Positions 40,106 to 53,255 of a stretch of DNA of 64,000 nucleotides are shown here, one piece after another; within the stretch, counting starts at the first letter, position 1, and every line of letters begins with the position of its first letter. Made by a program: the position numbers and the translations under genes. The stretch comes from Candidatus Nomurabacteria bacterium (GTDB taxonomy: Bacteria > Patescibacteriota > Minisyncoccia > Phycocordibacterales > UBA9973): contig JAHFNO010000006.1 in NCBI GenBank assembly GCA_023267275.1, positions 9,519-73,518 of the forward strand. The letters are read 5' to 3'. The notes beneath the pieces were generated by a model. That model was not told where the DNA came from. It saw nothing but the letters and a program-made list of their open reading frames with translations, and ran no database searches.

Positions 40106-41893
40106 ATGAATAATAATGACTATATTTCAACAACCGATCTTGCTCGCATACTAGGGGTTACCAGACAAGCCATTCAAAAAAAATTAAAGGGAGAAGATGA
40201 GCTAAAAACCAAAGAAGTTGGTACTGGTTTTTTATATCAAATTGGGAGTTTACCTCAATCTATTAGAGATAGAATAAAAACAGAACAAGAAACAGCCAAG
40301 GAAAAAGCAATTTCGAAAAAAATCGGTGATAACCATCATGATCTTAATTTTGAGAAAGAGCTTTGGGCAGCCGCAGACAAACTCCGTGGAAATATCGATG
40401 TTTCCGAATATAAAAATATTGTTCTCGGACTTCTTTTTTTAAAATATATTTCTGATTCATTTTACAAGCGTCGTGAAGAACTTGAAGTGATGACTCGTGA
40501 TACCAAAAATGAGGATTTTTATGTTCCAAATGATGAATCACGCAAGCAGATTCTTGAGACAAAAGATTTTTACACGAGCGTTGGAGTTTTTTATGTTCCT
40601 GAAAAATCCCGTTGGGAATATCTTCAAACAAAAATATTGAACCCAGAATTGGCAAAAATTCTTGATGGCGCGATGGATTTGATTGAACAAGATAATCGAG
40701 CCCAACTCGAGGGAGTTCTTCCGAAAGTGTATACAAAAACGACTCTTGATCACGCGGTGCTTGGCGAACTAGTTAATATTTTTTCTCGGATTTCTTTTGA
40801 TCACAATTTCGACAGAGAAAAAGATATCCTTGGTCGCATCTATGAATATTTCCTTGGGCAGTTTGCTTCATCCGAGGGAAAACGTGGAGGTGAGTTTTTT
40901 ACTCCACGATCAATCGTTAAACTACTCGTAGAAATTCTTGAACCATATGAAAACGCGCGTGTCTTAGATCCTGCTTGTGGTAGCGGAGGTATGTTTGTAT
41001 CTATGGGTGAATATTTACATACTCATAAAATGGATCCATCAAAACTTTCTATAAGCGGACAGGAAAGCAATCAAACTACGCTTCGTCTTGCGAAAATGAA
41101 TCTTGCAATTCGGGGGCTTTCGGGGAAAATTGAGCTGGGAAACACTTACTATCAGGATAAGTTTCCAAACCTTCAAGCTGATTTTGTGATTGCCAATCCT
41201 CCGTTTAATGGCGAATGGGAACCGTCAAAACTTTCAGATAATGACCCTCGTATTATTCTTGGCACTCCGCCGTCTGGTAATGCAAATTTTATGTGGGTGC
41301 AACATTTTGCTCATCACCTTGCTCCGAATGGTCAGGCAGGGTTTGTTATGCCGAATGGCGCGCTTGCAGTGTCAGGTAAAGAAGGAGATTTGCGAAAAAA
41401 ATTAATCGAGGCAGATTTGGTCGACGTAATCATTTCTTGTCCCGGAAAACTTTTTTATAACGTTTCGCTTCCAGTTTCTTTATGGTTTTTGGCAAAAAAT
41501 AAATCCGGCGACCGCTTTCGTAAACGAAAAGGGGAAACACTCTTTATTGATGCGCGCGACACCTTTGAACAAATTTCACGCAAGCAAGTTGTTTTTAATC
41601 CTAAAAATATTGAGAAAATTACAAATACTGTTCGCGCATGGCGAGGAGAAAAAGGTGCCGATAAGTATGAAAATATTGCCGGTTTTTGTAAATCTGCAGC
41701 TCTGAAGGAAATTGAAAAAAATGGGTATGTACTTACTCCCGGCCGATATGTTGGGCTTGCGGATGTCGAAGATGATGGAATTTCATTTGAAGAAAAAATG
41801 CAAAAGCTTTCCAGCGAACTTCGTGCCGCTTTTCTGAAGGGTCGAGATTTGGAAAAACAGATTGAAAATAATTTGAAAGAATTGGGATTTTAA
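40106..41893 (+). CDS. hsdM: Type I R-M methyltransferase with N-terminal HTH
   Basis: LWAAADKLRG, GEFFTPRSIV, DPACGSGG, ANPPF; N-terminal ISTTDLARILGVTRQAIQKK. Confidence 0.96.
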   Translation: MNNNDYISTTDLARILGVTRQAIQKKLKGEDELKTKEVGTGFLYQIGSLPQSIRDRIKTEQETAKEKAISKKIGDNHHDLNFEKELWAAADKLRGNIDVSEYKNIVLGLLFLKYISDSFYKRREELEVMTRDTKNEDFYVPNDESRKQILETKDFYTSVGVFYVPEKSRWEYLQTKILNPELAKILDGAMDLIEQDNRAQLEGVLPKVYTKTTLDHAVLGELVNIFSRISFDHNFDREKDILGRIYEYFLGQFASSEGKRGGEFFTPRSIVKLLVEILEPYENARVLDPACGSGGMFVSMGEYLHTHKMDPSKLSISGQESNQTTLRLAKMNLAIRGLSGKIELGNTYYQDKFPNLQADFVIANPPFNGEWEPSKLSDNDPRIILGTPPSGNANFMWVQHFAHHLAPNGQAGFVMPNGALAVSGKEGDLRKKLIEADLVDVIISCPGKLFYNVSLPVSLWFLAKNKSGDRFRKRKGETLFIDARDTFEQISRKQVVFNPKNIEKITNTVRAWRGEKGADKYENIAGFCKSAALKEIEKNGYVLTPGRYVGLADVEDDGISFEEKMQKLSSELRAAFLKGRDLEKQIENNLKELGF

Positions 41894-41897
41894 ATTT

Positions 41898-42563
41898 ATG
41901 GATTTGCAAGACTTAAAAAAGAAGTTTATCAAAGATGAGCTACAGATCACCGAAGATTACGGGAAGATTTTCGCTTTCATCGATTTCTCAAATGTAAATA
42001 AGTGGTTTCAAAACGACAACCAGGATTGGGAGAACAAACTACTTGCTCTCGATGAAAAGTTATCAATAGACTTAGAAAAACTAAAATTATTCGTGGATAT
42101 TTTTAGTGAGAGAGCTAGAATCTACTATGGAGAAAATCCTAAAAACCAAAAGTCTCTCAGTTTTACCTATGTTATGCGGAAAGTTTTTGGCAAGAGAGAT
42201 GTAATGACCAAAGACATTCAAAAAATTAGGCATTATTTTGAGACGGGCGAACATATTCCTGATAAATATGTTGAAACAGACGCAGATGGTAAAAAATTTA
42301 TAGAAATCAGAAAATCAAATTTTGATGTAGAGATTTCTGTAGATGCACTAAGGATGCTTGAACACTATGATACCTTCTGTATTTTTTCCGGAGATGCTGA
42401 TTTTGTGTATTTAAATAATTACTTAAAACGAAAAGGTAAGAAAGTGATTATAGTGAAGGGTGGATATATTTTGACAAAATTCAGAGAGTCGGCTGATTTA
42501 GTCGTAAATGCGCAGAATATTAAGAAGCATATTGCCAAGGTAGAAAAACAAAAACCTGACTAG
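41898..42563 (+). CDS. NYN domain (PIN-like, LabA/DUF88) predicted RNase
   Basis: FIDFSNV, KSNFDVEISVDA, FSGDADF acidic motifs. Confidence 0.88.
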   Translation: MDLQDLKKKFIKDELQITEDYGKIFAFIDFSNVNKWFQNDNQDWENKLLALDEKLSIDLEKLKLFVDIFSERARIYYGENPKNQKSLSFTYVMRKVFGKRDVMTKDIQKIRHYFETGEHIPDKYVETDADGKKFIEIRKSNFDVEISVDALRMLEHYDTFCIFSGDADFVYLNNYLKRKGKKVIIVKGGYILTKFRESADLVVNAQNIKKHIAKVEKQKPD

Positions 42564-42610
42564 GTCAGGTTTTTGTGGAAAGTCATCCCGAATTGACCTC
42601 GGGCAGGTAT
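42549..42610 (-). ncRNA. Candidate 60-nt small RNA convergent on the NYN gene
   Basis: Minus-strand TTGATT-17-TATACT (42645-42617) with extended TG, hairpin CCCGA/TCGGG, then terminator AAAAACCTGAC-CTA-GTCAGGTTTTT. Confidence 0.45.
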
Positions 42611-42667
42611 GGAAGGAGTATAACATTCACCACCCTCAAAATCAAGAGTTATCAACAGAACAAAAAT

Positions 42668-43912
42668 ATGAGCAAATTATTGGAACAAATAAAAAAAAAT
42701 AAAGAAACCAAGCGATTGGGGGATTTAGTTGTGATCAATCAATCGTCAATCACAAAGGATTTTCCGCATAAAGTCATTGAGTATATTGATACTTCTTCTG
42801 TGACACGAAATTCTTTTGATAAACCAGAAATTCTGAATATAAACGAAGCCCCGAGTCGAGCAAAACGATTGGTTAAAGACGGAGACACGATACTTTCTAC
42901 AGTAAGGCCCAGCCAGCATCATTATGGTTTTATCCGAGCTCCTAAACCAAACACAATTGTTTCAACAGGATTTGCTGTCCTGACTCCCCAAAACGATATT
43001 GATCCATTTTATTTATATTCATATTTAACTCAGGATTCAGTGACAAGTATTCTGAATGCGATAGCCGAAGCAACTACCACGACCTTCCCAGCATTTAGAC
43101 CTGAAGTTCTTTCAGATATGGAAATAGAAATTCCGGATCTACCAACTCAAAAGAAAATTGCAGAAATTTTGGGCGCTTATGACGCAAAGATTGAGAATAA
43201 CAATCAAATAATAAAAAATCTTGAATTGACGGCACAAACTATTTTCGATGAATGGTTTGTAAAATTTCGATTTCCTGGGCATGGGAAAGTGAAAATGGTT
43301 GAGAGTGAAATGGGGGAGATTCCTGAAGGGTGGGAAGTAAAGAAGGTTTCTGATGTTGCTCATCTTAACAAGGGTGTTTCTTATACATCAGCCGAAATAA
43401 ACACTGAGCATAAAGGTGCAGCGTTAATTAATCTAGGAAACTTTCTGAGAGGAGGAGGTTTTAATTCTGATGGAATAAAATATTACACAGGCGAATATAA
43501 ATCAACCCATATTGTAAAACCCGGACAAATTTTAATTGCTATGACTGATTTAACTTCCAACAGAGAAGTCATTGGTCATCCAGCTAGACTGCCTGAAAAT
43601 TTTAAGGAAGCTGTAATTTCTCTTGATGTCTGTTCTCTTAGCCCCGGAAAAGATATATATCTTGAATTTATCTACAATTCTATGCTGAAGAGAAGTTTTT
43701 CTAAATTGATGGCTAGTTGTGCGTCCGGAACAAATGTTTCTCATCTCAAGAAAGAAAACATTGAAGGATATGATCTAATATTTCCCGAGGAATCATTATT
43801 GGTTCAATTTAACAATTTTACGCAACCCGTTTTTACCAAACAAGCTATCTTAGAAGAAGAAAATCAAAGATTAAAACAGTCGAGAGATCAATTACTGGCA
43901 AAACTAATTTAA
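42668..43912 (+). CDS. hsdS: Type I R-M specificity subunit
   Basis: Two TRDs joined by PDLPTQKKIAEIL..YDAKIENN..LE..AQTIF..WFV and GEIPEGW; ends RDQLLAKLI. Confidence 0.95.
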   Translation: MSKLLEQIKKNKETKRLGDLVVINQSSITKDFPHKVIEYIDTSSVTRNSFDKPEILNINEAPSRAKRLVKDGDTILSTVRPSQHHYGFIRAPKPNTIVSTGFAVLTPQNDIDPFYLYSYLTQDSVTSILNAIAEATTTTFPAFRPEVLSDMEIEIPDLPTQKKIAEILGAYDAKIENNNQIIKNLELTAQTIFDEWFVKFRFPGHGKVKMVESEMGEIPEGWEVKKVSDVAHLNKGVSYTSAEINTEHKGAALINLGNFLRGGGFNSDGIKYYTGEYKSTHIVKPGQILIAMTDLTSNREVIGHPARLPENFKEAVISLDVCSLSPGKDIYLEFIYNSMLKRSFSKLMASCASGTNVSHLKKENIEGYDLIFPEESLLVQFNNFTQPVFTKQAILEEENQRLKQSRDQLLAKLI

Positions 43913-43917
43913 ATTTT

Positions 43918-44598
43918 ATGGATAAAACTAATTTAACTGAATTCCAACAATACTTATATGATCAACACAAGGAAACATCTGAAATGAGGTCAAAATTCGG
44001 GCGTGAATTCCTGACTATTTTTAGCAATGCCAATAAATCAAGGATTGAACTTTCTAAACATATCACCATGCTCACTGTTGGATTGCTTGCTGTGGGTGTT
44101 TTTTGGCAAACTGGAAGTTTATATGCGAAGGTTGGATTTGGTTTTGCGCTGATAACTATTGTTTTTACCGTATTCTTTCTACGCGAAAGAATTGATCAAG
44201 AGGGAAGAGAAGCTGTAACGATGATAAAGGTTTACAATGCGATGTTTGATAAATACCTTAGCATAATTCTCGCAGCAGTTAAAAAAGATAACCCCAAAGA
44301 ATATTTCCAAAACCTAAATAATTTTCTCGAGAAAGATCCTGATTTTTTGAACATTCAGAATAATTACGAAAGTAGTTTAATTAGAAACGAGATTCTTGAT
44401 TACGGTGGAGAAGTCGTGAATTTTCTATTTCTTTCTACACTAACATTCTATGTATTAGCTTTTTTATCAATCCAGTTTAATTTTATTTTGGTAGTATTAG
44501 TTATCACCCTTACTTTTTCATTTTCAGTATTTGAAACAGCAAGTTTTATTCTCCGACCTTTAAATAGATGGTTAAATAAAAATATATCTAGGAAATAA
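43918..44598 (+). CDS. Hypothetical membrane protein (about 4 TM)
   Basis: 226 aa, two hydrophobic hairpins; cargo in the R-M locus. Confidence 0.7.
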   Translation: MDKTNLTEFQQYLYDQHKETSEMRSKFGREFLTIFSNANKSRIELSKHITMLTVGLLAVGVFWQTGSLYAKVGFGFALITIVFTVFFLRERIDQEGREAVTMIKVYNAMFDKYLSIILAAVKKDNPKEYFQNLNNFLEKDPDFLNIQNNYESSLIRNEILDYGGEVVNFLFLSTLTFYVLAFLSIQFNFILVVLVITLTFSFSVFETASFILRPLNRWLNKNISRK

Positions 44599-44664
44599 TA
44601 TGAACCCCTCAACGAAAAAAACATAGCGGAAGAATCCCTCATCGACTGGCTGAAAGGTGAGGGG
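44599..44664 (+). pseudogene. Frameshifted duplicate of the first ~66 nt of hsdR
   Basis: Matches 45889-45955 except one missing C and one C/T change. Confidence 0.85.
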
Positions 44665-44754
44665 GGTGAATACTCAAAAACCAACTTTTAATATACCTTT
44701 ACTTATTAAAAGTTAAATGCTAAACTTTTAATATAAATAATCATATTATAACTT

Positions 44755-45885
44755 ATGCAACAAATATTTAAAGCAGGTATATATAGACAACAACTGGAAT
44801 ACAAGAGTTTCAGCCCTTTTCCTATCAATAAACAATTTGAGTGGACTGATAAGAAAATAAATATGCTTTCAGATGAGGCTATGCGTCTTTTGGGTGAACT
44901 TAATGCTTATTCCACACTCGTTCCTGATGTGAATTATTTTATAAAAATGCACATCGCAAAAGAAGCGACGAAATCAAGCCGAATTGAAGGTACAAAAACA
45001 AATATCGATGAAGTGCTTCTTTCTAAAGAAGATGTTGATCCTGAACGACGAGATGATTGGAAGGAGGTGCATAATTATATTGTAGCGATGAATCAGGCAA
45101 TAAAAGAACTCTCAACCCTACCACTTTCAATGCGTCTTTTGAAAAACGCTCATAAAATACTTTTAACACACGTGCGCGGAGAGCACAAAACCCCAGGGGA
45201 GATTCGCATCAGTCAAAATTGGATAGGTGGTTCAAGTCTAAAAGACGCGTTCTTTATACCACCTCATCCAAGTGAAGTTGGAGAACTTATTTCTGATCTT
45301 GAAAAATTTTGGCACAACAGAAATCTTGAAATTCCATTCCTAATAAAAATGGCAATAAGTCATTATCAGTTTGAGACAATTCACCCGTTCCTAGATGGCA
45401 ACGGAAGAATAGGACGACTGCTCATTACTTTGCAGTTAGTTGATAAAAAGATACTCCAGAGACCGACCTTGTATCTTTCCGATTTTTTTGAAAGAAACAA
45501 AGGTTCGTATTATGATTCGCTGACCCTTGTTCGTTCTTCTAACAATATAGAGCAATGGATTAAATTTTTTCTTTCAGGTGTAATTGAAACAGCCCATAAG
45601 GGTAAGGAAACATTTGAAAAAATAATCGTATTGCGCCAAAAATATGAGCAAAAAATCATGAAATTGGGTCGTCGAGCCGAACTCGGACAGCGGTTGCTAA
45701 TTAAACTCTTTTCTCAACCGATATTAAATGTAAATCAGATTGCAAAGGAATTGGATATTACATTTCCTACAGCATCGTCGCTTGTGGACGAGTTTGAGCA
45801 AAAAGGCATTCTAAAGGAAGTTACCGGTTTTTCAAGAAACCGTTCTTTTGAGTTGTTTGAGTATGTTGAATTGTTTAGGAATTAA
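44755..45885 (+). CDS. Fic family protein (Fic_N + Fic + C-terminal HTH)
   Basis: [29 protein letters not shown]. Confidence 0.95.
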
Positions 45886-45889
45886 TTAT

Positions 45890-48800
45890 ATGAACCCCCT
45901 CAACGAAAAAAACATAGCGGAAGAATCCCTCATCGACTGGCTGAAAGGCGAGGGGTATGAGTATGTAAAAGGTACAGATATCGCCCCGGGGCAGCCTCGT
46001 GCGGAGCGCGAGGATTTCCGGGGTGTGGTTTTAAAAGACCGCCTGCTTGGAGCTATTCGTAGGATCAATCCACAACTGCCTGCTGAACAGGCGGAACAAG
46101 TTGTTGTCGATATTGCCTCGTATCACAATGCTGATTTAATGCTCGGAAACAAGGAGATGTTTTCTTTTATTACAGAAGGAGTAAAAAGGACTTGGCAAGA
46201 ACAAGGAAATGAAAAAACAGAAATAGTAAAGTTGATTGATTTCGAGAATAAAGATGCGAATGAGTTCCTTGTAGTCAATCAATTTACGGTGCAGGGGGTT
46301 GACTCACTCGGTCGTCCCGATGTCGTTATTTTCATAAATGGATTGCCACTTGCGGTGTTCGAGCTGAAGAGCCCGGTACGACAAACCGCTGATATCCGTG
46401 AGGCATACAGAGATATTGAGGATTACAAAAAAGAAATACCGAAACTTTTTTTCTACAACCAGATTGTAGCGATTTCGGATTTATTCCACGCGCATCATGG
46501 AACGATCTCATCTTCGTGGGAACGTTATGGCACATGGAAGGGAATAAAAAATGAAACTGATGTTCCGAAAGATACAGAGGAACTCGAAGTGTTATTGAAA
46601 GGGCTTTTCAATAAGGAGCGGCTTTTGGATGTGATCGAAAACTTTATTGTTTTTGAAGCAAGTGGTGATGGTGATGCCGTAACATATACAAAAAAGATGT
46701 GTTTGTATCATCAGTATTATGGTGTCAATAAAACAATTGAGAGTACGATTCGCTCAGTTCTCGGCAAGCAAGATAGAAAAATCGGCGTATTTTGGCACAC
46801 ACAAGGATCAGGCAAATCGCTCTCAATGGTTTTTTATGTGAACAAAACAAAAAATATACCTGAGCTCAAAAGTCCGGCGTATGTGTTTTTGACTGATCGT
46901 GAAGATTTAGACGACCAGTTGTTTAAGACATTCAATCACACCGGATATGGAACTCTAGCCAAGAAGGCCTCAAGCATCAAAGATTTGCGCAGTCGACTTA
47001 CGTATATTGGCGGGGAACTTATTTTCACGACAATTCAAAAGTTTCAAGAAGATCCTGACGCGCATGAGGCCTTGAGTTTGCGCGAGAACATTATTGTTTT
47101 GGCCGACGAAGCGCACCGCACGCAGTATAGCAATCTGGCAGGCAATGTTCGTCTTGCACTGCCGAATGCGAGTTTTTTGGGAGTCACAGGTACGCCGATT
47201 GCTCGGAATGACAAAGATACAGTACGGGTGTTTGGCCCAGTTGTGAGTTCGTATAAGATCAGTCAATCAGTCAAAGACAAATCAACCGTGCCAATTTATT
47301 ACGAGGGGCGGCTTGTGCCACTCCATCTCGCTGATCAATTAATCGACAGCAAATTCGACGCGGTTCTCGGTGAAGTTGTGCCGGATGATAACGCACGAAT
47401 GCGTAAGGAGTATGCAGTGCTTGAGGAAGTCGTGGGCGCACCGAGCCGAATAGAGAAAATCGCACAGGATGTCATACATCATTTTAATAATCATCCAATT
47501 GAAGGTAAGGCCATGATTGTGACGATGAGCCGCCGAATCGCGGTGCTTATGTATGAGGCCATCCAAAAGATACCTAGTGTTCCAGAAGTGGCAGTCGTGA
47601 TTTCAAACAACGATGAATATAGTTCAAGAATTCAAAAGGAACATAATATAAAAACTTTAGAGCGAAGGTTTAAAGATGACAAAGATCCGCTCAAAATCGC
47701 CATTCTTTGTGATATGTGGCTCACCGGTTTTGACGTTCCGTGTATGCATACACTGTATCTCGATAAGCCTCTCAAAAATCATGGCTTGATGCAGGCGATA
47801 GCTCGCGTGAATCGAGTGTATAAAGACAAGCCAGGAGGTTTGGTTGTGGACTATATTGGTATTGCAGAGAATTTGAAAAAAGCACTTGCGTGGTATGACT
47901 CCGACATACAAAATGATGCGCTTGTTCCTATTTCCGAAGTTGTAGAGCAAATGAATATTCTCCGTGATCAAGTCACCAAATTTTTCGGGAAACTCGACTA
48001 TACTGCATGGAAGAAACTAAAAGGTATTGAGCTTGTCACAATTATGCAGGCAGGAATGAATGAGGTCATCACTCAAGGTGGCATATTAAATGACGAACAG
48101 AAGATGAAATACATGGGTACAGTTTCTAAGCTTTCAAAATTACACGCACTTGTAATGCCGGGGGATGAAGCTATGAAAATAATATCGGATCTCCAATTTT
48201 TTCAGGCTATACGAGAGGCAATTCGCAAACAAACTGTTTTGCCGCATGCGATATTCCCTGAAGAAACGGAAAGCGCGATTCGTAGCCTGATGCATAATTC
48301 AATTCAGGCTGAGGGCATCGTTGATCTTTTTAGCGTCCCAGGAGAAGAGAAGAAAAGTATTTCGATATTTGATGAGAAGTTTATTGAAGGTATCCGAAAA
48401 TCACACTACCAGAATTTTGCAGTCGATTCTGTGCGAAAATTGCTCGATCAGGAAATACGATCACGAATGCGATTGAATAATGCTCGATACGAAACAATGC
48501 TCTCGCTTCTTGAGGGTTTGATTGAAAAATATGAGAACAATGTAATTAGTTCTGCTGAAATTATAAAGCAGTTGCTTGAAATTGCAGATGGTATTAAAAA
48601 GCTAGATCAAGAAAGTAAGGAAACAGGACTCTCGAATGAAGAAATTGTTTTTTATGATTCTTTAGCCACCGACCCTGATCTAAAAAAAGCCGGAATTGAT
48701 ATTAAAGAATTTGTAAAGGAATTAACAAGGCGTATTCGACGTGATTTGGCAATCGATTGGACAAACAATGAAACAATCAAAGCTCGTATTCGTCAGAATG

Positions 48801-48919
48801 TGAGATTACTTTTATTACAAAAAGGGATTGTTGAGGAGATGCAGACGAAGCGACTAATTGAGTCGATATATCAAGAGACAGTAAGAGTATATAGAGGATT
48901 TTTACCTACAGTCTTATAA
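45890..48919 (+). CDS. hsdR: Type I R-M restriction subunit
   Basis: RPDVVIFINGLPLAVFELK, WHTQGSGKS, DEAHRTQY, TGTP, MWLTGFD, QAIARVNR. Confidence 0.97.
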   Translation: MNPLNEKNIAEESLIDWLKGEGYEYVKGTDIAPGQPRAEREDFRGVVLKDRLLGAIRRINPQLPAEQAEQVVVDIASYHNADLMLGNKEMFSFITEGVKRTWQEQGNEKTEIVKLIDFENKDANEFLVVNQFTVQGVDSLGRPDVVIFINGLPLAVFELKSPVRQTADIREAYRDIEDYKKEIPKLFFYNQIVAISDLFHAHHGTISSSWERYGTWKGIKNETDVPKDTEELEVLLKGLFNKERLLDVIENFIVFEASGDGDAVTYTKKMCLYHQYYGVNKTIESTIRSVLGKQDRKIGVFWHTQGSGKSLSMVFYVNKTKNIPELKSPAYVFLTDREDLDDQLFKTFNHTGYGTLAKKASSIKDLRSRLTYIGGELIFTTIQKFQEDPDAHEALSLRENIIVLADEAHRTQYSNLAGNVRLALPNASFLGVTGTPIARNDKDTVRVFGPVVSSYKISQSVKDKSTVPIYYEGRLVPLHLADQLIDSKFDAVLGEVVPDDNARMRKEYAVLEEVVGAPSRIEKIAQDVIHHFNNHPIEGKAMIVTMSRRIAVLMYEAIQKIPSVPEVAVVISNNDEYSSRIQKEHNIKTLERRFKDDKDPLKIAILCDMWLTGFDVPCMHTLYLDKPLKNHGLMQAIARVNRVYKDKPGGLVVDYIGIAENLKKALAWYDSDIQNDALVPISEVVEQMNILRDQVTKFFGKLDYTAWKKLKGIELVTIMQAGMNEVITQGGILNDEQKMKYMGTVSKLSKLHALVMPGDEAMKIISDLQFFQAIREAIRKQTVLPHAIFPEETESAIRSLMHNSIQAEGIVDLFSVPGEEKKSISIFDEKFIEGIRKSHYQNFAVDSVRKLLDQEIRSRMRLNNARYETMLSLLEGLIEKYENNVISSAEIIKQLLEIADGIKKLDQESKETGLSNEEIVFYDSLATDPDLKKAGIDIKEFVKELTRRIRRDLAIDWTNNETIKARIRQNVRLLLLQKGIVEEMQTKRLIESIYQETVRVYRGFLPTVL

Positions 48920-48931
48920 AATGAGGGAAGG

Positions 48932-48988
48932 GTATACCCGCACACTTCCTTTTTTGACCCTTTCCAAAAAGGAAGTGTGCGGGTATAC
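48932..48988. repeat. Perfect 23-bp-arm palindrome, empty sibling of the GIY-YIG element ends
   Basis: gtatacccgcacacttccttttt (48932-48954) / aaaaaggaagtgtgcgggtatac (48966-48988). Confidence 0.8.
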
Positions 48989-48995
48989 TTCGCGT

Positions 48996-49481
48996 ATGGA
49001 TCCTATCGAAACACAAAAAAACCCAGGACTTTCTGTGCACCAGATACTGGCTCAAGGGTACTTGATCTACCTCGCTGCTATCGTGGTTGGGTTTGGTGCA
49101 AGCTATCTTTGGCCAGAAACACTCTCATTTCCGTTCGAATCTCCATTTGGTTTTGTGTTGATTGTGCTTGGCACACTCGTAATCTACTGGGCGCAGTATG
49201 CGACAGGTTCTACTTCGGCAAAGCGAAATATACAGGAAGCAGTCATTACCAAGGAACATTTTTTTGTTGGACCGTACAAATATTCTCGTTCACCAACACA
49301 GTACGGACTATTCTTGATGGCGTTTGGACTCGCACTTTTGTACGGGTCACTCTATATGACAATCACTACTGCAATCGCGCTTCTTGTTGGAAAATTCTTT
49401 ATCATCCCGCATGAAGAAAAAAATTTGGCACGCCGATACGGACAGCCCTATTTGGAATATAAAAAAGAAGTTAGACTCTAA
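48996..49481 (+). CDS. Isoprenylcysteine carboxyl methyltransferase/PEMT family membrane protein
   Basis: GPYKYSRSPTQYG, IPHEEKNLARRYGQPYLEYKKEVR; TM helices. Confidence 0.85.
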   Translation: MDPIETQKNPGLSVHQILAQGYLIYLAAIVVGFGASYLWPETLSFPFESPFGFVLIVLGTLVIYWAQYATGSTSAKRNIQEAVITKEHFFVGPYKYSRSPTQYGLFLMAFGLALLYGSLYMTITTAIALLVGKFFIIPHEEKNLARRYGQPYLEYKKEVRL

Positions 49482-49487
49482 TTTGTT

Positions 49488-50210
49488 ATGCTCACTGTTC
49501 TTGTAGGAAATGACACTGGAAAACGAGCCAAGCGACTCGATGTACTTCTCGCGCCAGCACAAAAAAGTGGCGGGGATATTCAAGTATTCAGCGACGTAAA
49601 TTTTGATGCAACTATTTTTCGTACGATAGCAGAAAGTATGTCGCTCTTTGGCGGAACAAGTACGGTAATCCTTTCTGGTGTTGGTGATGTTGCAGAGCTT
49701 CGCGACTCGCTCGAAAAAATATTGCCGATACTTTCTGAATCACCACACACATTTATTGTTTCCGAAACAAGTTTGCTCGCTCCTTTTTTGAAGAAGGTTC
49801 AATCAAGTGGGGGAGCGATAGAAAAATTTGAACTTGCAGAAAAAATAAAAAAAGGAGAAGCGTTCAATTCATTTCTTTTGACCGATGCATTTTCCGAACG
49901 GAAGCGTTCTGTTGCGTGGCCACTCTATCGTAAAGCGATTGATCTTGGTGTTGAACCGCGTGAACTCGCCGGCAAAATTTTTTGGGCAACAAAAAATATG
50001 CTTCTCGCAAAAAAAACTACTGGAGCAAGTGAGTCTGGTTTAAATCCATTTGTGTATTCAAAAGCAAAACTTGGGAGTAAAAATTTTTCTGATGCAGAGC
50101 TCGAAAAAATTGCGACCGAGCTCACCATTCTTTTTCATGAATCAATGTTTTCTTCCGTAGAATTTGAACCAGCACTCGAAGCATTTATTTTGCGCGTGCT
50201 CGCAAAATAA
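49488..50210 (+). CDS. holA: DNA polymerase III delta subunit (short form)
   Basis: SMSLFGG, FLLTDAF..RK...AW.LY, GLNPFVYSKA...KNFS..EL. Confidence 0.75.
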   Translation: MLTVLVGNDTGKRAKRLDVLLAPAQKSGGDIQVFSDVNFDATIFRTIAESMSLFGGTSTVILSGVGDVAELRDSLEKILPILSESPHTFIVSETSLLAPFLKKVQSSGGAIEKFELAEKIKKGEAFNSFLLTDAFSERKRSVAWPLYRKAIDLGVEPRELAGKIFWATKNMLLAKKTTGASESGLNPFVYSKAKLGSKNFSDAELEKIATELTILFHESMFSSVEFEPALEAFILRVLAK

Positions 50211-50512
50211 ACCCGCACACTTACTTTTTTATTACTCTCATGTTTTATGTATATGTTTTGAAAAGTAAAAAAGATGAAGAATTGTACATTGGTTCAACCA
50301 ATGATCTTAAGCGTAGAATAAAAGAACATGAGAGTGGAGAGAGTTTTTCAACAAAGCTGAGGAGACCTTTTGATTTAATTTATTACGAAGCATATAAAGA
50401 TGAGAAGGACGCAAGAAAGAGAGAGTCATCATTGAAACTTCGTGGAAGGTCTCGTTTTCATTTAATGCAAAGATTAAAAAACTCTCTCCTATAAAAAAGT
50501 AAGTGTGCGGGT
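50211..50512. mobile_element. 302-bp unit: GIY-YIG gene between perfect 22-bp inverted repeats
   Basis: acccgcacacttacttttttat (50211-50232) / ataaaaaagtaagtgtgcgggt (50491-50512). Confidence 0.65.
50240..50494 (+). CDS. GIY-YIG nuclease family protein
   Basis: YVYVLKS...LYIGSTNDLKRRIKEH...YYEAY...ARKRE. Confidence 0.95.
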   Translation: MFYVYVLKSKKDEELYIGSTNDLKRRIKEHESGESFSTKLRRPFDLIYYEAYKDEKDARKRESSLKLRGRSRFHLMQRLKNSLL

Positions 50513-50803
50513 AAAAAAAGAGCCTGCGATATATTTCCGAAACTCAGAAACATGTCGCAGGCTCTTTGATATTCGCACTAGCCTTTAGCTGGAGAATGTT
50601 ATTCTCCTTTTTGTTTTGTAAAGAATAGAACAAAGAGTGAGTAGTAATTTTTCAACTGATCAATTTTTTATAATAGCCACTTACTTCTATTATTGAAATC
50701 GTATCTATGAAGTTGAAAGCTCTTTGCGAAATGTGGTTGTAGTATTTGATGTATGTCCCGAAGTGGGTAACTTGAATGCTACAGTACTCCGCTATTTCTG
50801 CTT
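50513..50803 (-). ncRNA. Candidate ~290-nt structured non-coding RNA
   Basis: Minus-strand TATAAT (50815-50810), no ATG-initiated ORF, several nested stems, ends in a long hairpin plus U-run at about 50568-50513. Confidence 0.45.
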
Positions 50804-50899
50804 GCGTCTATTATATCGCATCAAAGAAGAACAAAAGGTGGATAAATAAAATTCTTGTGGATAACTTATTCGTTCGCCACAGCGAGTGCTATTAAACCC

Positions 50900-51436
50900 T
50901 TATTTTGAGCCACGCTTTGCCACAATGAGCAGGAAGAGCAATACAGTGAATCCAATGAGTCCCATTACGGGAATGGTGATAAAACCATATTCATTCACAT
51001 ATTTAATAAGACATGATGGACCGGATGCTTCGCAAGAGAAAGCTGAGTATCCGATGTTTTCTGAAATCACGTGATAGAGACTGACAAGTGTGCCTGCAAT
51101 CGTGAGTACAAGTGTGTAGTCAATAATTCGAAAATCTTTTTTCCAGATAGCCATTCCAAATAGAAAAACTTGCGGATAGAAAAAAATTCGCGCGTACCAA
51201 CACAAGAGGCATGGTGGAAACCCAATGATGTTTGAATAGGTGAGACTAGAGACGAGTGCTACGAGTGAAGTGAAAAATCCAAGAATCAAAATATTTTTTT
51301 GTACAAATAGTTGAATTTGTTTTGCAAAAAAATATTCAGGGACAAAAAGTGTAAATAATAAAACACAGCTTACAATAATGCCGAAGAATACACCCAGGCT
51401 CATTATTTGATTCCAAACGAGAATAAAATGTTCCAT
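50900..51436 (-). CDS. dsbB: Disulfide bond formation protein B
   Basis: GFPPCLLCWYARIFFYP, C..SC second pair, FITIPVM; TM helices. Confidence 0.9.
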   Translation of the reverse strand: MEHFILVWNQIMSLGVFFGIIVSCVLLFTLFVPEYFFAKQIQLFVQKNILILGFFTSLVALVSSLTYSNIIGFPPCLLCWYARIFFYPQVFLFGMAIWKKDFRIIDYTLVLTIAGTLVSLYHVISENIGYSAFSCEASGPSCLIKYVNEYGFITIPVMGLIGFTVLLFLLIVAKRGSK

Positions 51437-51439
51437 AGA

Positions 51440-52039
51440 TTATTTTTGTGTATCTTCAACAAGTGGAACACCAGAAATTTCTGAGAGACGTTGCAATGTA
51501 GCCTCACCGCGCAACTGAGCACTTGGAAGAAATGTCCATACATCGCCAGTGTGTGTTGGTGGAACATCACTCGCTACTATTTCACCGGAAGGAAATACCC
51601 AGCGTCTAAAATATTCAGATGCCCAGTTTGTAGTACAACGAGGATCTTCACCGGGAACATTTGGAGCGATAGAACAAATTTCTGGAGCTTTTGCACTTGT
51701 TATAGAAATGCCTTTTGGAAAAGTCCATGTCGGATAACTTTCAATTTTATTTTCATCACAAATAGGGAAGCGGCTTCGATCAGCATGTTCGCATTCTTTA
51801 TACAAACCCTCTGCTGTAAGTTTTTGTCGAGATGCCTCGAACCATTTTTCTTGTTCTTGGCAGTGTGGACACCAAAATGCTCCGTAGAAAGCCACGCCTT
51901 CTTTTACCAATGCTTTTGCAAAAGTATCGTATTTACCCGAAGTTGATGAGCCACGTATAACAATCGTCATCATGACGATGATTGCAACCATGACAAGAAC
52001 GAAAATAATAAGACGCGAATTTTTTGTTTCTGTTTTCAT
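51440..52039 (-). CDS. Membrane-anchored thioredoxin-like protein
   Basis: FYGAFWCPHCQEQ, IESYPTW; adjacent to dsbB. Confidence 0.85.
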   Translation of the reverse strand: MKTETKNSRLIIFVLVMVAIIVMMTIVIRGSSTSGKYDTFAKALVKEGVAFYGAFWCPHCQEQEKWFEASRQKLTAEGLYKECEHADRSRFPICDENKIESYPTWTFPKGISITSAKAPEICSIAPNVPGEDPRCTTNWASEYFRRWVFPSGEIVASDVPPTHTGDVWTFLPSAQLRGEATLQRLSEISGVPLVEDTQK

Positions 52040-52193
52040 TTGTTGATTATAACCCACTTTGATTTTGAGCGACAGACAAGTTGTTTCTTGATTTAAAGGT
52101 TGTTTTATGGTATTTTCGAGAGGTTAACAAATATCCCTAAATCCGCGGTAGCGGATCGGGCGAACAAATTCGCTCGAAGAGAATTTGTTTTAG

Positions 52194-52266
52194 CCGCCCG
52201 TAGCTCAGCTGGTAGAGCAGCTCCCTTTTAAGGAGAGGGTCGCAGGTTCGATTCCTGCCGGGCGGA
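52194..52266 (+). tRNA. tRNA-Lys (anticodon TTT)
   Basis: Acceptor CCGCCCG/CGGGCGG, TAGCTCAGCTGGTAGAGC, loop CT-TTT-AA, GGTTCGATTCC. Confidence 0.95.
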
Positions 52267-52310
52267 CACTTACAAAAATGAGCTCGACTTTTAGGTCGAG
52301 CCATTTTTGT

Positions 52311-52463
52311 GTGTCCGCCCGGAGAAAGCCAACTTCTCATTCAGCAGAATGACTCTTGGAGTAAGGCTTTCGTCAGGAATCGAAAGACTTTTCGTTACCG
52401 AAGTTTACTTCGGTCGAAAAGTATCTGGCGACGTGGTCGCCGATCCGTGTACTCACTTCCTGC
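52311..52463. repeat. tRNA-associated structured repeat (Lys locus)
   Basis: Contains split reverse complement of the tRNA 3' end; shares CAGGAATCGAAAGACTTTTC and CGATCCGTGTACTCACTTCCTGC with 58303-58433. Confidence 0.75.
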
Positions 52464-52505
52464 TGCATTCAATAACTTTCGATAAGAGTACTCGCGATCC
52501 TGCTT

Positions 52506-53255
52506 TTATTTATATTGTATCTGTATTCCACCCGGCACAATTTTCATACCTTTGATCTCTTTCCCAGACTGCATTTTTTTACGGAGCACGTATTTCTTAA
52601 AAATTTCATCGAGTAGAGGGTTTACCTTATCTTTTGCTTTCCAGGTTAAAAGGAGCCCCGCGTCGATCTTTCTTGTTTCTTTTGGTATTGTAAGAAAATC
52701 TCCATTCTGAACAATAGTCCCAGAAACTTTTACATCTACGGTCGAAACAATAGTTGCTTTAAAAGTAAGATGATCACCTTCCTTGTTTATTTCGATATTG
52801 TAGAGTTCCGATTTGTCACCCTTTTCTTTCATACTTGTTACAATCATATCTTCAAAACTTTTTCGAAATTCTGTCAGATTTATCACTACCGGTGGATTTT
52901 CCACTTTTTTCATTTCAGCTTTTTTATCCAGACCCGCAATTATTTTTTCCGGAATCGGTTTTGGCGAGTAGGGAATACTTTCTGTGATGAGCAATTTTGC
53001 TGGTGCGGGTTCTAGTTTGTCGATATAGGTTGCTTCAATTTCTTTTTTCAACGTGTCGTGCGATACAAGCGTGCTTGTAGTATCACTCACTGTTTTTGCA
53101 GATTGCTCGGTTTTAGGTTTTTCAGTTTTGTGATGATTTTGTTGTTCGGAACTTTCGCCAGGGTGCATTAACATAGCTCCTGCGAGCACTGCCGTTTTAA
53201 AAATAGTGCCTCGTTTATTTTCAGCTTCTTTGTGTATTTTTTTGAATCCTTCCAT
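52506..53255 (-). CDS. Hypothetical protein
   Basis: 249-aa ORF; TATAAT 6 nt before ATG. Confidence 0.7.
   Translation of the reverse strand: MEGFKKIHKEAENKRGTIFKTAVLAGAMLMHPGESSEQQNHHKTEKPKTEQSAKTVSDTTSTLVSHDTLKKEIEATYIDKLEPAPAKLLITESIPYSPKPIPEKIIAGLDKKAEMKKVENPPVVINLTEFRKSFEDMIVTSMKEKGDKSELYNIEINKEGDHLTFKATIVSTVDVKVSGTIVQNGDFLTIPKETRKIDAGLLLTWKAKDKVNPLLDEIFKKYVLRKKMQSGKEIKGMKIVPGGIQIQYK

Follow-up and report, generated by a model that had tools for sequence, protein, structure and literature searches.

A 300-bp insertion element in Patescibacteria that is probably mobilised by its own 84-residue GIY-YIG nuclease

SsnA, a GIY-YIG protein of 94 amino acids (aa) assigned to cd10448, binds a hairpin repeat as single-stranded DNA (ssDNA) and cuts a few nucleotides upstream of it, and in the passages drawn on here its describers note that NTS-ssnA-NTS is laid out like an insertion sequence (IS) and propose, as a hypothesis, a domesticated element (Chenal et al., 2025; PMC11893778). 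GIY-YIG open reading frames (ORFs) are also described from non-intron insertions in rRNA genes of candidate phyla radiation (CPR) bacteria, in passages that report sporadic sites and judge them not to have been spread by homing (PMC11270868). Here we analysed a stretch of 64,000 nucleotides (the window) of a Candidatus Nomurabacteria bacterium (contig JAHFNO010000006.1; genome G000, 1.02 Mb, 40.6% G+C), in which an 84-aa GIY-YIG gene (Pfam PF01541, E 8e-19) lies within a perfect inverted pair directly after the stop codon of a holA-like gene, just as the initial annotation had described, and a gene-less hairpin with the same end lies 1.3 kb further 5'. The holA-like gene matches TIGR01128 (E 4.6e-14), yet under the curated cut-off. 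We propose that the gene and its repeats form a 300-bp insertion element whose own nuclease likely mobilises full and gene-less copies alike by nicking ends and targets, with host repair completing the reaction.

The element had been taken for a 302-bp unit with 22-bp ends. The 22-nt pair (50211-50232 and 50491-50512) is indeed perfect, but its outermost A/T belongs to a 4-bp TAAA duplication, so that the element measures 300 bp (50212-50511) and its ends, of CCCGCACAC type, 21 bp. Another copy in the genome (G000:C17:4227-4297) has CAAG on either side; this word is not palindromic, and the flank is therefore a direct repeat and the element begins at CCCG. That copy lies 3' of what we take, from its translation, to be an rplB-like gene, where the ribosomal protein cluster ends, and a copy in another genome (L012) stands between genes presumed on the same grounds to be rplB and rpsS. 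The gene-less sibling, with arms at 48932-48957 and 48963-48988, is a 47-bp element with TATA on both flanks, and the mirrored A>C change reported for its two arms is present in both. Folding z-scores are -10.0 for the element and -11.8 for the hairpin. A second sample from this study yielded a contig that is identical over 48794-50805, and thus neither is an assembly artefact.

Pairs of the same end are found throughout the genome: six copies measure 67-71 nt, and shorter hairpins 35, 39 and 47 nt. The genome-wide search that had been recommended returned at least eight further gene-less copies. Because a free choice of boundaries inflates direct repeats, flanks were compared from a fixed anchor. 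An exact 4-bp direct repeat flanks 48 of 73 distinct gene-less copies from the window genome and its relatives, some of them orthologous and so not all independent (permutation mean 11.7, maximum 22), and direct repeats of 5-8 bp were not found at these 73 copies. For full elements, 35 of 85 loci were dropped for want of an anchor, duplicates were collapsed to 46 and 14 of tRNA type were set apart; the duplication is exact in 13 of the 32 that remain, one of which (L125) lacks a left flank (permutation mean 2.3, maximum 8). One 299-bp unit stands at two unrelated sites (L008, L305). The element carries no other cargo as far as 80 end pairs of up to 1.2 kb are concerned: no enclosed gene other than the GIY-YIG nuclease was identified in them, pairs of 787, 982 and 984 bp, not examined for ORFs, resembling arms of separate copies or chance matches, and a 655-bp pair in L314 being made up of end-derived repeats in tandem. 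Insertion beside existing ends is suggested by tandem stacks of elements or of such repeats with common duplicated bases (L314, L147, L151, L158, L066). Reuse of the donor's four bases as sticky ends is disfavoured, since copies with one inner sequence carry differing duplications (TTGA, CTTG, TTTA, TTTT). A one-sided mismatch (C opposite T) recurs at position 5 of the terminal stem in 12 of the 73 gene-less copies and gives the element a polarity.

The elements have moved into previously empty sites, and empty alleles are found at four loci. Orthologues of holA occur in 14 of 15 same-genus genomes and the nuclease gene follows none of the 13 that have downstream sequence, which answers in the negative the earlier question of whether the locus is vertically conserved; HolA identity among these relatives is 42-76%, and none matches the rebuilt site exactly. 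By eye, the gap 3' of holA holds a left arm in G006, a right arm in G004 and a possible remnant in G005. In four relatives (L170, L173, L176, L181) the stretch from the holA stop to the terminator is occupied by other hairpins, one of which, in G014, resembles the ends studied here; arms, remnant and hairpins together mark this gap as an insertion hotspot. Upstream of the PEMT-family methyltransferase gene, nine of 11 readable relatives are empty and have a single native -10 box, a full Y-shaped copy lies between duplicated TATA in G008, and G015 retains a right-arm remnant. The hairpin therefore inserted into the box and duplicated its TATA; it does not supply the -10 of the next gene, as had been thought. 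The dnaE promoter is empty in 14 of 15 relatives, with a single TATACT or TATAAT box and in most of them TTGTCA at -35 distance; G000 has a 67-bp copy inside the -10 box, and G015 a remnant. G000 (C21, L421:627-721) and G006 (L459) share another, different insertion at the start of dnaE, some 95 nt long, which seems to have duplicated the first codons. The promoter of the C30 ATPase gene is empty in 14 of 14 relatives.

Host -10 boxes are thus targets of insertion and not creations of the elements, and TATA(A/C)T stands on one side of 16 of the 17 copies with an exact TATA duplication. The rebuilt targets show a palindromic preference, G-TWWA-C: in 88 of 102 symmetrised sites the duplication begins with T, and in 47 a G immediately precedes it. 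In a scan for -35 boxes the right arm offers a -35-like hexamer, by consensus match only (2 sites found, against a shuffle mean of 4.4), and the hairpin can at most be a source of a new -35 for the methyltransferase gene.

The 84-aa protein has the domain profile, the fold and the catalytic Tyr, Tyr, Arg, His and Glu of the GIY-YIG superfamily. Its structure model (predicted local distance difference test, pLDDT, 91) consists of three strands plus helices, and all top fold matches are GIY-YIG proteins: UPF0213 (1zg2; sequence E 1.6e-7, Foldseek E 1.2e-4), 7wme and 6sei/6seh, the nearest folds being UPF0213, At-HIGLE and Slx1. Of 105 repeat-bounded proteins, all have R26, H30 and E62, and 104 have Y5 and Y16; in a set of 34 all five residues are invariant. 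The conserved residues, together with a median dN/dS of 0.10 (25 non-independent pairs, dS near saturation), indicate a catalytic site that is intact and under purifying selection. A search of proteins of 46-147 aa returned 1044 relatives.

The 300-bp element is predicted to fold (-58.6 kcal/mol, z -10) into a terminal stem topped by a three-way junction, both inner helices of which would use coding sequence (Table 1). By fixed criteria such a junction is found in 25 of 102 distinct full elements, against 18 of 1224 sequences given the arms of another element and two of 1020 with shuffled arms; 22 of the 25 fall at two positions, around nt 73 or nt 95 of the ORF, and within each class own arms outscore foreign arms. 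A junction built from coding sequence would hence be common but not universal, and the shortest copies, the window hairpin included, are predicted to have none. Copies of 65-78 nt have two inner hairpins in 32 of 34 cases, against 322 of 1020 shuffles. In a gene-less class of 134-141 nt, two crossing inner helices (in the order A, B, A', B') are predicted in eight of 14 copies (L341, L359, L339, L361, L352, L344, L310, L338) against 74 of 560 shuffles; they look mutually exclusive and could form a switch or a pseudoknot. On the sense strand of the gene, G-T mismatches are not in excess over A-C mismatches, either in the terminal stems (19 versus 30) or in the junction helices (4 versus 6), which argues for a structure at the DNA rather than the RNA level. 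We therefore give very little credence to a fold that acts as RNA, in an intervening-sequence-like or RNA-intermediate element whose nuclease merely opens the target, although non-intron insertions in the rRNA genes of CPR bacteria contain GIY-YIG ORFs (from the passages of PMC11270868 drawn on above) and a sister lineage lies at tRNA 5' ends: many copies occupy -10 boxes, which precede the start of the transcript, and Rfam returned nothing but a tRNA at gathering score over 47000-53000. A homing endonuclease in a self-splicing intron was likewise rejected, as this region contained no Rfam intron family and the insertion sites are unrelated.

To place the element in its family, homologues were taken from 80 metagenome loci, 30 loci of the order (96 of 401 genomes positive) and L020. 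An unbiased search for inverted repeats around each gene gave a score of at least 10 at 85 of these 111 loci, versus 12 of 330 shifted controls (83 of 109 when the window and L020 are not counted), so that homologues are bracketed by repeats as the initial annotation had expected; the units mostly measure about 275-330 bp. The end types CCCGCAC, CCCCCAC, CCCCTCAC, CCCTGCAC and CCCCCACC largely track the subclades of a 212-protein tree, whose deep supports are modest. A UPF0213-like group in these genomes lacks inverted repeats in 33 of 38 cases. Small GIY-YIG genes are present in 56 of 61 genomes, with up to 10 each, and G021, G032 and G461 have 8-10 of them per 0.6-0.7 Mb genome. Viral contigs gave three weak matches and plasmids three with 38-41% identity. 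Some lineages differ in their sites. A sister lineage with CCCCTCAC ends lies at apparent tRNA 5' ends with direct repeats of 7-9 bp (L084, L098, L107, L111, L114, L121, L129 and others), the tRNA start being rebuilt by the right end. Another, with ATCCCG/ATCACG ends, has ATG in both flanks (L220, L227, L231, L240, L247, L273, L288), a pattern that suggests insertion at start codons. Many insertions, mostly of the CCCCCACAC lineage, fall in GTGGATAAC (L117, L378, L408, L409, L412, L413, L366), a word which we take to resemble a DnaA box.

Eight proteins with SRM-like hairpin flanks form a separate clade (FastTree support 0.998) outside which the window protein falls. This clade serves as a proxy for cd10448, no SsnA sequence being in the tree. 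Its member in the same genome belongs to a separate Ssn-type system, a 103-aa GIY-YIG gene (G000:C10:5828-6174, L002) between 27-bp inverted self-folding hairpins, of which G000 holds 42 copies; the window protein is 42% identical to this paralogue over 72 aa. A search string for the SRM matched none of 110 loci, yet it caught just one of the eight SRM-like loci, and in view of this low sensitivity the weight is carried by the folding test, in which a window arm alone gives 0 kcal/mol and the SRM-like arm of the same genome -6.1. These data bear on the possibility that the host tolerates the protein as a site-specific ssDNA nuclease of the Ssn kind, for instance one that trims incoming DNA, and that repair at its cuts, not a dedicated transposition pathway, multiplies the repeats as a side effect. 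Superfamily, size and the layout of a gene between repeats are those of SsnA and NTS, and the gene often adjoins a cognate element instead of lying inside it. We nevertheless regard this as improbable: the 4-bp duplication is precise and the size classes are discrete, as befits a defined insertion reaction, the duplication is seen at none of the eight SRM-like loci, and a domesticated host gene would not be expected to be so patchy (none of the 15 same-genus genomes has the gene) or to occupy unrelated sites.

That the window holds an autonomous and a non-autonomous copy tied to the nuclease, as first proposed, survived both tests that could have overturned it, namely a lack of repeats around homologues and vertical conservation of the locus; that the nuclease drives their movement is our inference. 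In the mechanism that we propose, the element would fold, as a single strand or as a cruciform, into its terminal stem and three-way junction; coding sequence would form this junction in the full element, and two small hairpins would do so in the copies of 65-78 nt. The nuclease would bind this branched end and, much as SsnA cuts a few nucleotides 5' of its hairpin, would nick some 4 nt beyond the stem; in targets that melt easily and look like the end junction it would make a cut with a 4-nt stagger. Strand joining and filling would be left to host polymerase and ligase.

Several points weigh against the nuclease as the mover. GIY-YIG domains are known as hydrolases and not as strand-transfer enzymes, the combination of inverted ends and a 4-bp duplication at a Y-N-N-R target is characteristic of DDE transposition, and the genome encodes, elsewhere than in the element, an IS30-like transposase (L184, G000:C21) and five Y1 transposases (L185-L187). 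The strict junction test was failed by 77 of the 102 full elements. A synonymous-shuffle control gave 16 junctions against a mean of 8.2 and a maximum of 12, a contrast that is only twofold because this shuffle retains much of the pairing partner, and the arm-swap control has replaced it. Bracketing repeats are absent around 26 of the 111 homologous genes, the closest metagenome matches included, where the gene stands beside the element; by eye, about 20 of these 26 loci keep an arm or adjoin a gene-less copy, among them six of the seven closest homologues without repeats, several of which share one orthologous site. Neither empty alleles nor excision were seen in the contig sets of three DNA runs, and these contigs held no circle junctions, the listed joints having inner letters of other gene-less copies; no RNA run was among the sequencing runs listed as containing the element. 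Among 250 genomes of the family, a homologue is found in 19 of 35 with the end motif versus 18 of 215 without it (17 of 33 after dropping two genomes whose sole motif is gene-linked), and inside two genera in 10 of 16 versus 6 of 33 and in 4 of 7 versus 3 of 41; these counts are inflated by kinship and come from fragmented assemblies. Since gene and ends are inherited together, neither this co-occurrence nor the congruence of the tree is proof of recognition. Conversely, 16 of the 35 motif-bearing genomes have no homologue at E 1e-22, and at this threshold none was found in the 15 same-genus genomes, although five of these carry the motif; G008, with several copies, gave no match to the nuclease even by profile search.

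Such genomes would be expected if the copies were ordinary miniature inverted-repeat transposable elements (MITEs) moved in trans by an IS5-, IS701- or IS1380-like DDE transposase, with the nuclease gene as a passenger or helper of long standing. DDE chemistry is consistent with the terminal inverted repeats, the 4-bp duplication of fixed length and the palindromic target, and multicopy IS are often dropped from assemblies. We consider this unlikely. No transposase-sized gene was identified in the 80 end pairs, sought up to 1.2 kb, and by eye the listing of 251 genomes held no facing ends 0.3-5 kb apart on one contig. PF01609, PF13701 and PF13358 were not found in G000, nor were PF13586, PF13546, PF13751 and PF12762 in five copy-rich genomes (G000 and four others); with fragmented assemblies these absences are weak evidence. 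A passenger, moreover, would not be expected to hold codons that pair with the inner ends of the element, or to retain its active site across many end types.

Movement by the element's own nuclease accordingly remains the explanation that we prefer. The element is real, widespread and apparently undescribed, and it would be categorically new only if the nuclease is the mover, which is probable but unproven; literature searches returned no description of such an element, with subscription journals, ISfinder and the supplements of PMC11893778 and PMC11270868 outside their reach. We lean, if only slightly, towards the wider reading of a new class of transposable elements across Patescibacteria, in which a 300-bp autonomous unit uses its 84-residue GIY-YIG protein as a transposase that reads a codon-built three-way DNA junction, and its gene-less derivatives rewrite promoters by way of their -10 boxes.

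Table 1. Features of the GIY-YIG element, its gene-less sibling and their surroundings in the window.
Feature	Position	Strand	Basis
TATA, left target duplication of hairpin	48933..48936		sequence; single copy in empty alleles, e.g. G005
Gene-less 47-bp hairpin, non-autonomous, in -10 box of methyltransferase gene	48937..48983		repeats, fold, empty, full and remnant alleles of relatives
Candidate -35 TTTCCA from hairpin, 17 nt from -10	48961..48966	+	consensus scan only, 9/12 matches
Host -10 TATACT; first four bases are the right target duplication	48984..48989	+	-10-like hexamer in 9/11 readable element-free relatives
Host PEMT-family methyltransferase gene, outside element	48996..49481	+	Pfam PF04191; orthologue comparison
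Host holA-like gene; stop codon within left target duplication	49488..50210	+	ORF, profile match, orthologues
TAAA, left target duplication	50208..50211		sequence; 4-bp duplication family-wide
Left terminal inverted repeat, 21 bp; no fold alone	50212..50232		repeat search, folding
Helix A, 5' strand (leader and start codon); predicted partner 50325-50335	50234..50244	+	folding
84-aa single-domain GIY-YIG nuclease gene; stop codon in right repeat	50240..50494	+	ORF, Pfam, model, conservation
Predicted junction segment in coding sequence: 50325-50335 closes helix A, 50336-50348 opens helix B, 0 unpaired between	50325..50348	+	repeat search, folding
Helix B, 3' strand (last codons); predicted partner 50336-50348	50477..50489	+	folding
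Right terminal inverted repeat, 21 bp	50491..50511		repeat search
TAAA, right target duplication, merging into A-tract ahead of host hairpin	50512..50515		sequence
Host terminator-like hairpin, outside element; kept in element-free relatives	50517..50567		repeat search; relatives

Upstream of these features, a type I restriction-modification (R-M) island (40106-48919; hsdM, NYN, hsdS, an uncharacterised membrane protein, Fic and hsdR) lies between polA and the PEMT-family gene. These two genes are adjacent in six relatives, and the island was therefore inserted between them. The hairpin had been read as marking the island's border. The full copy of G008 and the remnant of G015 occupy the identical site, however, and G015 has no R-M island and polA directly upstream, so that the hairpin site is independent of the island. 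A role as island attachment site was rejected on account of these alleles, and no end motif was found at the left border of the island.

If the nuclease is the mover, the GIY-YIG fold would be added to the catalysts of prokaryotic transposition, alongside the DDE, HUH and serine/tyrosine enzymes, and at 300 bp the autonomous element would be less than half the size of IS200. It would also account for the many tiny GIY-YIG genes in the streamlined genomes of Patescibacteria, and the many pairs of ends and proteins would offer a range of very small nucleases whose specificities may differ. Insertion into -10 boxes, for example that of dnaE, parts the box from its native -35 and might offer a route to promoter turnover in regulator-poor genomes. 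The hypothesised origin of Ssn/NTS as a mobile element becomes directly testable on a sister lineage that still has target duplications.

Among known systems, elements of the DDE type and their MITEs (the IS5, IS701 and IS1380 families, Correia elements) share with the present one terminal inverted repeats, a short fixed duplication, autonomous and non-autonomous copies and promoter effects; they differ in that the sole gene here is a GIY-YIG nuclease in a 300-bp unit for which the searches described above found no DDE partner. HUH elements are not known to make a target duplication, whereas the family of the element described here does. REP/RAYT and IS200/IS605 resemble it in a small nuclease tied to structured DNA ends, a probable action on single strands and a gene beside or between the repeats (partly from the passages of PMC11893778 drawn on here), but the fold is GIY-YIG, the ORF of the element matches GIY-YIG proteins only, and the five Y1 genes lie elsewhere. 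Slx1, At-HIGLE and UPF0213 are the best matches in sequence and fold, and Slx1 acts on branched DNA according to entry titles; these are, however, host repair or uncharacterised enzymes without cognate repeats. The rRNA-gene insertions come from the same host group; the words 'inverted' and 'duplication' are absent from the main text of that report, and its passages on the ORFs propose no mechanism (PMC11270868). With Ssn/NTS the element has in common a single-domain GIY-YIG protein (about 90 aa there, 84 here) with corresponding catalytic residues (Y6, Y17 and E64 in SsnA, Y5, Y16 and E62 here), inverted cognate repeats that flank the gene and gene-less repeats throughout the genome, and the passages of PMC11893778 drawn on here contain no mobility test and no target duplication. 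Each SRM is a hairpin in itself, whereas the arms in the window pair only with each other, and the 4-bp duplication and the predicted three-way junction in coding sequence set the present element further apart. To these comparisons our analysis adds empty alleles at conserved -10 boxes, co-occurrence at the genome level, a test of strand symmetry and the contrast, within one genome, with a system of the Ssn type.

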